Positions 34,801 through 37,800 of a stretch of DNA of 64,000 nt are shown piece by piece; within the stretch, counting starts at the first letter, position 1; the number at the start of each line of letters is the position of its first letter. The stretch is taken from IMG/VR virus record IMGVR_UViG_2703718775_000013, one strand, 5' to 3'. The position numbers were made by a program. This DNA is from a virus (Duplodnaviria > Heunggongvirae > Uroviricota > Caudoviricetes).

Positions 34801-37800
34801 TCGGCCTGGGCTTTTGTGCGAATAGCATCAGCCTGTCCGGCAGCTTCCGCGCGCAGCATGTTGGCCTCTGCTTCACGTTGTTTGACCTCTTGCTCGCGTT
34901 GCAGGGTTTTTTGGTTTGCCGTGACTTTGGCGTTAATACTGTCAATAACTGTTGGCGGGTATTCTGGCTTACCTACATAAGAGAGGCTCATCACCTGAAT
35001 GCCGATTGGCGTCATTTCTTCCTGAATGTCTTTAAGGGCTGCATCAAGCAATTCAGATTTGCCACCGTCGATAAATTTGTCGGTGGTCATTTTGCTGGCT
35101 AATCGGTTCAGAGCATCTGCAACCTTCTGGCGTAGATCGGTATCAGTAATATCATCTACACCTTTGCGATAGGTCTGAAATACCGTTGTGACTTTTGCTG
35201 GATCAACCTTGTAGGCTACGCCGATGTGGTAACCAATGGTTGTTCCGTCGCTCATCTGGAAGCTGAACGGCTCATCGTATGTCTTCATTTGCTTAAAGGT
35301 CGGGAAGATATAAACTTCAGTATTCAAGCCTGTCCAGTAGCGACCAACGCCAACTACTTCACCGATACCTTTATCATCCCCCAGCTTATTTACTTTGATC
35401 CCTACGTTACCTGGCTCTACCCGATCGCATCCGGTCAGACATAAAGAACCCAAAATAATCGCTGCACTAATCAACGTTTTTTTCATTAATTAATTTCCTG
35501 GTTTTTTCACGAAAAAAGACTACTGCGAAAGCCGGGTAAATGAGCGCGAGAAGGACTCCCAACAATACAAGTATTGTGCTGTTAGATGAGATCATATTTG
35601 GCAAAAGCCAAACATACAGAACCAGTGACACAATCAAACAGAGGACGGCATAAATATATAACCGCACCCATAGCGTTCGACATTTGTTCGGATTGTTCTG
35701 CATCCTCTCACTCCATTATTTAACGAATAAAAAAGCTGCGGTGCCGGGTTCCTCCCGGTGTCCTTTGGCTGGTTATCCACCGTGGACGTGGAAACAAGGA
35801 GAAATAATGGACAGATATAACCATTTCCCCGCGTGCGCTTAGCCGCATTCACCGCAACGGAAAGAGCATTCTTGGTGGACCTGTAGATTGGGATATGAAC
35901 CCGTTACAGGAGAATGCTCTTACCTGTTACGTGCTCCGTTTCGTGGAGCTAACGGCGGGTGATCAGACCGCACCAGACTGGACTTATTTCAGCGTTATGC
36001 TCATGCCAGAGAATCAAACTGTGATGGTCGGTGCTGAACTCCGACACAGGGTTGTAGCAAGCCCCGCAAAGCGCGCACTACTGTAGTTGCGGCACATCAG
36101 CCTGTGCATTCACCACAATGTTGAGAACACTGGTTGTCACGCAGCAACGCAACATTTATTCGTAGATTGGGATATGACCCCGTTACGCCAGTGTTCTCAA
36201 CGTTGTAGTTGTTATGCGTATTCTCTTACTAACCGCACACCAATACATTTCCCATCACGTTCATTTGTCTCGAAACGTGAATACTTAAGTTCGCCGTTAA
36301 TAATCGCTGTTACAACCCGTATCCCGTTAAACGCCCACATATTTCGCTCCATTTACACACATTACCAGTCGCCGGTTACGGTTCCGGCCAGGCCTCTTCC
36401 TCAACGGGGTGTTCTCCATACGGACTACCGTTTATTGGTCGTTCCTGCGGTTTATGTTGTGAAGCCAGATGCTTATCTTCTGGTTGCTTCTAAGATCTGC
36501 ACTTCATCACAACGGTAAGAGCACTCGATGCATTTAAGCCAGGCCCCATAAGGGAGAATGCTCTTACCTGTTATGTTGGTGCCGATTAACGGGATCGAAC
36601 CGCTGACCATTCGCTTACAAAGCGACTGCTCTACCAACTGAGCTAAATCGGCAATGTGGTGGGGAGTGATGGAGTCGAACCACCCGAGTCGCAATGACAG
36701 TAGATTTACAGTCTACCCCGCTACCCCTACGGACTAACTCCCCTAAAGTGGCGATGGTGGGTGGATTCGAACTACCGACCAGTTGGTTAACAGCCAACTG
36801 CTCTACCGCTGAGCTACACCATCACTTGCCGGGTACGTCTCCGGCGAGGGCTTCCACCTCCGTATGCTTTTCGGCGCACCGCGCCCTGGCTGCAATTCGG
36901 TAACAGGGGATGCATAACCCTGGCTTCCAGCGTGATTAGCGCCTTCAGCATGACGGGATATACCCGTAAATTCGTGGAACTGTACCCAAAGTGCTGTTAA
37001 GCACCGCTGTTACGCTGAAAAGAAAACGCAACAGGAAAGGACGCTGACCAACAGATGGCCCCTTCTCGTTCATCTGGTTAATCACACCAGCGCCCTTACC
37101 TGTTGTGCCTCCCCGTTCCCTAATACACAGACGGGGACACTCTGCGGTCGATTTTTTGACGGGGGACGACTCATACCCCATGGCATCTGGCTTCTTAGGC
37201 CGCTACCATCATCAGATCATCGTTTGCATTTACTTTAATGGTCAGTTTCTAAACCGCCGCAAAGTCGCTAACCATGACGAAAACCCTGAAAAAAACGCCC
37301 ACCCGAAGATGGGCAAACTGGACGCTCGTAACGCACTTCGGCGTTGCCACTTAGGCGCATGGTCAACCTGGCAACTCGGTGGTTTGTCTGGGAGGACTAG
37401 GCCCAGCCATGCTTACCGCCGCGCCTGTCGCGGCTAACAGCTAAATCGCTCTATAAATCACGATTCATTGAGGTAATATTACACTAATAAATTTATTAGA
37501 GCAATATACCCAAAACGTCATGAGCTACACCTCGAGTGTCCCCCTTACAAGACACAGAACGTCTGGCAAAAAGAGGTTCCACTCTGAAGCCACTGTCATG
37601 ATAAAGCTCTCTGATGTTTGGCGCGCCACTGTTAGTAATGAGAACCTTTGCACCTCGACGATGAGCATCCGTCAACAGAGACACCAGGCGTTTTTGCTCT
37701 TCAAACTTAAAGTCATGACCGGAATAGTTCGTGAATCCCTCTGTATTTGGAAGCGGTTCATACGGCGGATCGCAAAAGATGACATCTCCTTCTCCGGCAG

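Follow-up and report, generated by a model that had tools for sequence, protein, structure and literature searches.

Structured non-coding RNA modules and a three-way-junction RNA family in the ban operon of a P1-like phage-plasmid

The IMG/VR virus record IMGVR_UViG_2703718775_000013, analysed here as a stretch of 64,000 nucleotides (nt) referred to as the window, is a P1-like phage-plasmid that shares 99.3% identity with phage vB_EcoM-Ro157c2YLVW over the studied region. The subject of this work is the interval at positions 35704-36576, located within the ban operon between a cluster of tRNA genes and an open reading frame (ORF) for a membrane protein of 78 amino acids (aa). Every feature around the interval is carried on the minus strand, in the order dmt, the promoter Pban with the operator Oban, a 'dicF-like' leader with a terminator, tRNA-Asn, tRNA-Tyr, tRNA-Thr, the interval, the 78-aa membrane ORF, a gene encoding a 275-aa SPFH lipoprotein, a tRNA with the anticodon CAU, and ban. 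A sequence-only reading of the window had reported two hairpins here and placed them inside a C1-controlled transcript; this location is upheld by the 100% conservation of Pban and Oban with P1, the minus-strand orientation of all features, and the absence of any predicted sigma-70-like promoter in 35400-37600. The finding is real, however its interest lies elsewhere than was proposed: the hairpins are members of a widespread, unannotated RNA family, and the identification of the interval as non-coding structured RNA, whose modules recur in lambdoid leaders of early and late operons, is well supported.

Alignment with P1 reveals that the interval is 95-100% identical to a P1 stretch in which upl and plp are annotated on the other strand, with an intact tciABC cluster downstream of the same sequence. 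The gene names and the homology to the P1 map given earlier were therefore wrong: the interval is not the place where P1 carries tciA-C as had been suggested, nor does it lie between upl and the tRNA cluster, the ORF that had been called upl being the 78-aa gene rather than the upl of P1. The alignment rules out degraded tci coding sequence and refutes, for this locus, a scar left by a deleted tci cassette. In the window, tciABC is instead replaced by the 78-aa membrane ORF and the 275-aa lipoprotein gene (34659-35703, minus strand), the latter with an SPFH/Band 7 Pfam match (E 1e-30). Among the options raised earlier, small RNAs or processing sites are the best supported, as the stems covary across four lineages.

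Four hairpins and a three-way-junction RNA family

Three hairpins were identified within the interval and a fourth upstream of the tRNA cluster:

36106-36208, minus strand: H2, a three-way-junction RNA element (family covariance model 46.3 bits, E 1.4e-10, filters off; also supported by its fold and by covariation)
35845-35932, minus strand: H1, of the same family as H2 (family covariance model 45.6 bits, E 2.1e-10; also supported by its fold)
36500-36576, minus strand: H3, a related long hairpin that begins 5 nt past the 3' end of tRNA-Thr (folding free energy, dG, -33.9; z -4.7)
37020-37107, minus strand: H0, a fourth hairpin, upstream of the tRNA cluster and outside the interval (dG -46.3, z -5.1)

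H2 consists of a basal stem of 19-22 base pairs (bp), a second stem (P2) capped by ACGGG-GUCAUAU-CCCAAUC, and a third hairpin (P3). H1 has an unpaired UCCACCA in place of P3, and its tip reads ACGGG-UUCAUAU-CCCAAUC. Folding of both hairpins is strong, and the minus strand gives the better values, with dG -47.1 and z -6.0 for H2 (36100-36215; z -3.6 on the plus strand) and dG -35.4 and z -5.95 for H1 (35845-35935; z -3.9 on the plus strand). The 25-nt motif that they were reported to share occurs exactly twice in 64 kb, at 35883-35907 in H1 and 36162-36186 in H2, against 0.00 occurrences expected with up to 3 mismatches. A 21-nt repeat at 35910-35930 and 36552-36572 is likewise genuine, and the sequence-only reading overlooked both that its second copy forms the 5' arm of H3 and that H0 exists. 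H3 lacks the conserved tip; its P1 counterpart carries compensatory stem changes (GGTAAGGGTA/TACCCTTACC versus GGTAAGAGCA/TGCTCTTACC). H0 opens with the shared sequence AACAGGTAAGGGC, and a related tail, RTTGYGRTGAAKGC, follows all four hairpins.

A motif scan of viral contigs recovered many P1-like copies together with a third sequence type, found in prophages related to Yersinia phage PY54, in which all three stems differ from those of H1 and H2 while the architecture is kept. In this architecture, a basal stem of 17-22 bp carries a second stem, capped by the invariant loop, and a small third hairpin; the tail follows. A covariance model was built from 15 Yersinia-type copies only, with the other classes aligned to it; a single-class model was chosen because a MAFFT alignment of all classes mis-registered the stems. 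With filters off, this Yersinia-only model returns H2 and H1 as the sole significant matches in the window. It also detects a fourth class in lambdoid prophages of E. coli, including e14 of K-12, at 40-60 bits, and blastn searches place this class in 2810 of 5426 complete E. coli genomes.

When 62 distinct sequences were aligned to the model, 95% of the cells held a standard pair and both sides had changed in 18 of the 31 pairs, several of which occur as three Watson-Crick types. The covariation score was 0.496, compared with 0.183 for shuffled alignments (none of 500 reached the observed value) and at most 0.105 for slid partners. On the transcribed strand there are 116 G:U pairs against 52 A:C pairs, and this excess, together with the stronger minus-strand folds, points to an RNA of the transcribed strand. 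Covariation shows that the modules fold as RNA, and H1 and H2 belong to an undescribed, conserved three-way-junction RNA family, whose other members lie in leaders of late or early-left operons in PY54-type Yersinia prophages and in E. coli prophages of the e14 type and many others.

Rfam 15 scans of the window and of the P1, Yersinia, CMS-2020a, Qin and e14 loci yielded no family matching the junction, the only hits on it being chance miRNA matches to the long stems. Full-text literature searches for the motif sequence returned no paper, and the literature contained nothing specific on P1 transcripts of the region or on initiator-tRNA mimics in prophages. Megablast of a Yersinia unit against the E. 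coli genomes gave no match. A one-genome-per-species scan that allowed any 7-nt loop and required the GGTGAATG tail produced a single true hit, in a P1-like contig, and 8 hits in unrelated phyla, which is about the estimated chance number; the E. coli prophage class, with its tail GUGGAGAA, would escape a scan of this design. On its result, a reading of the modules as a chromosomal repeat (MITE) was rejected. The T4 stable RNAs C and D, GOLLD and ROOL are structured phage non-coding RNAs encoded beside tRNA genes and expressed lytically, however the junction has no Rfam hit at E up to 10 and is much smaller, at about 100 nt. The motif is a covariation-supported RNA, absent from Rfam 15, that occurs in P1-like phage-plasmids, PY54-type phages of Yersinia and the E. 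coli genomes counted above, always in lytic-operon leaders and beside tRNAs and DicF-like and STnc100-like small RNAs (sRNAs).

The conserved tip and the initiator tRNA

The most conserved part of the junction is the tip of the second stem, which reads A-C-GGG-N-U-C-A-U-A-W-CCC-A-A-U-C across the four classes. In tRNA numbering, U33, A35, U36 and A37 are present in all 62 distinct sequences and C34 in 60 of them, with variation confined to positions 32 (U, C, G or A) and 38 (U or A); the loops of H1 and H2 are UUCAUAU and GUCAUAU, respectively. This conservation is the pattern of an anticodon loop with the anticodon CAU, judged from the sequences: a 7-nt loop, U33, CAU, a purine at position 37 and three consecutive G:C pairs. 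Three G:C pairs beside the anticodon loop are a hallmark of the bacterial initiator tRNA. In the dominant allele of the E. coli class, the 14 nt CGGGCUCAUAACCC match positions 28-41 of tRNA-fMet at 14 of 14 positions, the tRNA-fMet sequence having been confirmed in 5426 of 5426 genomes, and tip variants occur only as singletons among the 109 copies of this class.

The junction elements are not tRNAs. ARAGORN calls four tRNAs, none of them in 35704-36576, and the Rfam tRNA model (RF00005) has no hit at E up to 10 on H1 to H3 or on H3 of P1. The junction tip and the anticodon arm of tRNA-fMet have GGG-N-UCAUA-W-CCC in common, and the junction adjoins phage tRNA genes, however it has no cloverleaf, D arm, T arm or CCA end. 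The term initiator-tRNA anticodon-arm mimic is used here as a working class and not as a curated family.

Three other readings of the tip and tail were considered and rejected. A T-loop (UUCRA with a U54-A58 reverse-Hoogsteen pair) fails in the window tips, where position 58 is U and not A. A pseudoknot between GUGAAU of the tail and GUUCAU of the loop is unsupported, as natural variants break it and none compensate. A start codon in the tail (GGUGAAUGC) was dismissed because natural variants have ACA, AAA or AAC at this place. Genuine T-arm-like tips are found in other units, namely AGGGTTCGAATCCCT in H3 of P1 and CAGAGTTCGACTCTCTG in phage CMS-2020a, so that the modules repeatedly display, or derive from, tRNA arms. 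The CMS-2020a array includes an H1-like unit with a T-arm-like tip at 2925-3030. In the same phage, a hairpin at 2630-2728 on the minus strand (dG -46.6, z -10.2) begins at the 3' end of tRNA-Ser and has a GUGAAA tail and an unrelated loop.

It is offered only as a hypothesis, from sequence likeness, that the junction may act as a mimic of the initiator-tRNA anticodon arm. A freed junction RNA would display the tRNA-fMet-like arm and would titrate or engage a factor that recognises it, candidates being a VapC-type anticodon-loop nuclease, the P site of the 30S subunit with initiation factor 3 (IF3), and methionyl-tRNA synthetase (MetRS). Enteric VapC toxins cut tRNA-fMet within the anticodon arm (PMC7180214), and the PARIS defence system is neutralised by a phage tRNA (PMC11464382). 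We regard as speculative, and on the doubtful side, the fuller proposal that the junction is a phage-encoded decoy or sponge that draws off some tRNA-fMet-targeting factor of the host or of a competitor, such as a VapC-type nuclease or another defence, or that it might engage the 30S P site and IF3 and so bias initiation. The hallmarks of the initiator anticodon arm nevertheless make tRNA mimicry a testable proposition at a time when phage tRNAs are gaining recognition as counter-defence tools. If it holds, an RNA-only counter-defence or take-over device would be present in roughly half of the complete E. coli genomes searched, as well as in P1-like phage-plasmids and Yersinia phages. The K-12 copy makes the motif quickly testable with existing data and simple genetics.

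Kinship with prophage leaders, processing and alternative readings

In each of the three units of the interval, the tail supplies the 5' strand of the helix closing a second domain, and this helix was recovered by minimum free energy (MFE) folding in 6 of 6 sequences:

35725-35857, minus strand: 3' domain of unit 1; the UGCGGUG tail pairs with a distal CACCGCA and encloses small hairpins, with a U6 run after
36019-36118, minus strand: 3' domain of unit 2; the UUGUGGUG tail pairs with a distal CAUCACAG (MFE fold z -0.3)
36456-36513, minus strand: 3' domain of unit 3; the GUUGUGA tail pairs with a distal UCACAAC (MFE fold z -0.5)

The closing helix is UGUGGUG/CACCACA in the Yersinia type, UGUGGUG/CAUCACA in unit 2, UGCGGUG/CACCGCA in unit 1, GUUGUGA/UCACAAC in unit 3 and CAUGGUG/CACCAUG in canonical STnc100, and it becomes a duplex of 16-21 bp in the dicF-dicB spacer. 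The changes between units are compensatory (UGU/ACA, UGC/GCA, CAU/AUG), and it is these differences rather than energy that support the domain of unit 2.

Unit 1 resembles the Rfam family STnc100 (RF02076) at 35737-35856, with 38 bits and E 6e-6, below the gathering score of 47; the corresponding score in P1 is 33.4 bits, and units 2 and 3 gave no hit. STnc100 and PasD are Hfq-associated prophage sRNAs encoded near Q, TerB-like and holin genes (bioRxiv 10.64898/2026.05.13.724894), and one STnc100/PasD copy lies 75 nt downstream of stx2 (PMC12370729). They share with the window a 5' GGUGAAU that closes a multi-hairpin domain by pairing with a distal CACC, the CACCGGGAGGNACCCGGCACC segment, and a location in lytic-operon leaders near Q, TerB-like genes, tRNAs and a holin gene. 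They differ in that STnc100 lacks the three-way junction and has promoter-like sequence directly upstream of CATGGTGAATCC, where the window units have a hairpin or junction, and in that only unit 1 ends in a U6 run while units 2 and 3 are without a terminator. None of the window units has the combination of its own promoter and terminator that marks an independent sRNA gene, and as no promoter is predicted upstream of them, release of sRNAs here would need processing.

E. coli chromosomes hold 3324 places with 100% identity to a 28-nt stretch of unit 1 (35829-35856); the one example examined lies in the dicF-dicB spacer of a Qin-type prophage. The dicBF leader of this prophage and the ban leader have in common a similar upstream leader, a small terminator-ended hairpin in the equivalent position, the 28-nt identity over the tail and first hairpin, and a long-range duplex. 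The closing helix is longer in dicBF (16-21 bp versus 7-8 bp in the window), and the Qin copy examined is without a junction element. The 'dicF-like' leader of the window shares sequence upstream of dicF of the Qin-type prophage but ends in a different terminator hairpin, and the DicF model (RF00039) found no match at E up to 10 in 34000-38000, against 75 bits for the Qin control. By sequence, the ban leader looks like a relative of the dicBF operon leader. From dicBF mRNA, DicF is freed by two enzymes: RNase E generates its 5' end, and when RNase III cleaves the full-length transcript a 72-nt form results (PMC5069750). By arithmetic (the 72-nt form versus the 53-nt DicF), the RNase III cut falls about 19 nt past the terminator, inside the long-range dicB-leader duplex.

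By analogy with the dicBF operon, processing of the ban transcript by RNases III, E and P can be reasonably inferred. The transcript would start at the C1-repressed Pban on the minus strand and carry the tRNAs and ban together with the modules, three of them in tandem and one more located upstream of the tRNAs, each consisting of a long hairpin followed by a domain closed through the GGUG tail. The 14-22 bp stems would be cleaved by RNase III and the short linkers rich in A/U by RNase E, and with RNase P acting at the tRNAs this would free the tRNAs, junction RNAs and STnc100-like sRNAs. Relative to an RNase III site of about two turns of double-stranded RNA, the H2 stem spans 22 nt with 91% complementarity, and H1 and H3 have 13-14 bp plus flanking pairs. 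On balance, the explanation favoured here is that the interval gives rise to processed, structured non-coding RNAs of the C1-controlled ban operon, the likeness of the tip to the tRNA-fMet arm included.

Several observations weigh against this explanation. Only four sequence classes stand behind the covariation, so that the independent events are few. The model does not recognise H3 and H0 (8.7 and 11.5 bits), which may be decayed copies; the folding energy of the unit 2 and unit 3 domains is unremarkable at the z values listed above, and the STnc100 likeness is sub-threshold wherever it is found (29-38 bits versus 47). Within the tip, G32 of H2 is unusual for an anticodon loop, the stem beyond the three G:C pairs is not tRNA-like, and C34 is lost in the K-12 e14 copy. 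Given the T-arm-like tips elsewhere, the tRNA-fMet match could reflect a captured fragment of a tRNA gene and not functional mimicry. The discrete RNA species are, moreover, predicted ones.

The context of the junction in other phages bears on the competing explanations. In Yersinia-type prophages it has the Q antiterminator gene on one side and the holin-lysozyme genes on the other, and is interspersed with morons (a DNA methyltransferase gene, a lipase gene and tRNA-Arg). There it always directly follows an intrinsic terminator, and at least eight different ones adjoin the same junction. In the E. coli prophage loci examined (L204, L227 and e14) it comes after a DicF-like terminator, with an xis/int-type gene next downstream in L227 and e14. 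In P1-like plasmids the hairpins come after the 3' ends of tRNAs. The orientation of the junction is always that of the surrounding operon.

The closest competitor, which we consider possible while giving it clearly less credence than the favoured explanation, is that the hairpins are only processing or stability modules, that is, RNase III/E sites and protective stems separating tRNAs, morons and mRNAs. The tip would then serve an RNase or RNA-binding protein as its recognition element, with neither mimicry nor a trans-acting RNA. The placement of hairpins directly after tRNA 3' ends or terminators is consistent with this, as in H3 after tRNA-Thr, in CMS-2020a, where H2 follows tRNA-Thr and another hairpin follows tRNA-Ser, and at the Yersinia terminators, as is the retention in H3 and H0 of a stem without the tip and with compensatory changes. 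A generic protective stem, however, leaves unexplained the nearly invariant 19-nt tip across four lineages whose stems share almost no sequence, and the 14-nt identity to the anticodon arm of tRNA-fMet.

The units are also recombination substrates, and deletion scars are present in other plasmids. Four P1-like contigs (L013, L038, L044 and L084) carry H2/H1 chimeras, in which the 25-nt motif links the 5' half of H2 to the 3' half of H1; the 279 nt between the motif copies are deleted, which removes 'upl' and breaks the basal stem. In other variants tRNA-Thr is joined directly to H2. These rearrangements, the insertion of tRNA-Tyr, tRNA-Ser and a 161-nt ORF cassette at unit edges, the T-arm-like tips of some units and the bracketing of a moron island by two elements in L100 would be expected if the interval were debris or module boundaries, composed of decayed tRNA and sRNA fragments and cassette-shuffling repeats with no RNA function of their own. 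This account is unlikely, as pairing survives full sequence replacement of three helices in four lineages, the G:U bias lies on the transcribed strand, tip variants are confined to singletons, and debris would not persist in Yersinia, P1-like and lambdoid phages. In the L100 locus itself, the junction elements lie at 3077-3176, where the tip stem has a G:U pair, and at 5574-5673, and the island between them contains a lipase-like gene of the alpha/beta-hydrolase type together with small ORFs and tRNA-Arg(UCU).

A DNA-level element, with single-stranded hairpins serving as a recombination site, priming signal or protein-binding site, is very improbable. The inverted repeats with a conserved core at cassette boundaries superficially resemble integron attC sites, and the junction with the upstream modules is precise; however, no integrase or transposase is consistently adjacent, the orientation follows that of the operon, the G:U excess fits RNA, and the one-genome-per-species scan, when both the tip and the GGTGAATG tail were required, gave one true hit, in a P1-like contig, and nothing outside a phage context. 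The attC core consensus is RYYYAAC / GTTRRRY, which the flanks ACATAAC ... GTTGTGA do not fit. The debris and DNA-level readings, like a protein-coding reading, fit the covariation and the tip conservation poorly.

Annotated reading frames and neighbouring genes

The claim that the interval holds no convincing ORF stands in part: P1 and RCS47 do annotate upl and plp on its plus strand, where the window has ORFs of 63 aa (upl) and 143 aa (plp), and a 42-aa ORF is present on the minus strand. To the analysts, the possibility that the interval encodes Upl and Plp as annotated in these reference records is remote in the extreme, given that judged by their sequences upl and plp do not behave like genes. 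The C-terminus of Plp is unrelated between P1, RCS47 and the window, with the frame shifted by indels after 41 or 91 aa, and in P1 it extends antisense into tRNA-Thr. Among 15 alleles of upl, the 7 variable sites comprise 6 non-synonymous and 1 synonymous, and neither upl nor plp shows a conserved frame with a synonymous excess; upl is cut to 22 aa in L035 and L118, and its ATG sits within the conserved RNA tip. Pfam searches gave no hit for Upl or Plp, and CRISPRi indicates that both ORFs are non-essential (PMC10695390). The reference annotation of the model phage P1 is accordingly corrected: upl and plp overlie structured RNAs rather than encoding proteins.

The same probably applies to ymfH of the K-12 prophage e14 (L262, 1619-1930), an annotated ORF whose span covers the three-way junction along with an STnc100-like domain and a DicF-like hairpin. 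A clone of ymfH has been reported to trigger the retron-Sen2 toxin RcaT (bioRxiv 10.1101/2020.06.22.160242); the active part of that clone could be RNA rather than protein.

The remaining features of the operon are as follows:

36210-36370, minus strand: an insertion of 161 nt that P1 lacks, precisely at the 5' edge of H2 (P1 alignment)
36577-36823, minus strand: the tRNA-Asn/tRNA-Tyr/tRNA-Thr cluster, co-transcribed with the modules (ARAGORN; Rfam tRNA 42-70 bits)
37279-37381, minus strand: the 'dicF-like' leader, with an intrinsic terminator (37296-37315) at its end (P1 annotation via the alignment; terminator scan)
37476-37505, minus strand: the Pban promoter and the bivalent C1 operator Oban (P1 annotation; 100% identity in the P1 alignment)

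The 42-aa ORF (36212-36340, minus strand), a candidate gene, lies inside the 161-nt insertion, has a GGAG Shine-Dalgarno sequence and is hypothetical in the annotation of Ro157c2YLVW; it was found in only 18 plasmids, for example of O26 and O111 strains, and is 100% identical throughout. Within the tRNA cluster, tRNA-Tyr(GTA) at 36657-36743 on the minus strand, between tRNA-Asn and tRNA-Thr, is extra relative to P1, and the cluster as a whole shares 76-83% identity with those of N4-like and T4-like phages. Upstream of the operon, dmt (37496-40537, minus strand) encodes 1013 aa, compared with a 2265-nt coding sequence of about 754 codons in P1, and contains Hint (residues 77-126) and LAGLIDADG (residues 298-361) matches within its C5-methylase half, which points to an intein with a homing endonuclease domain.

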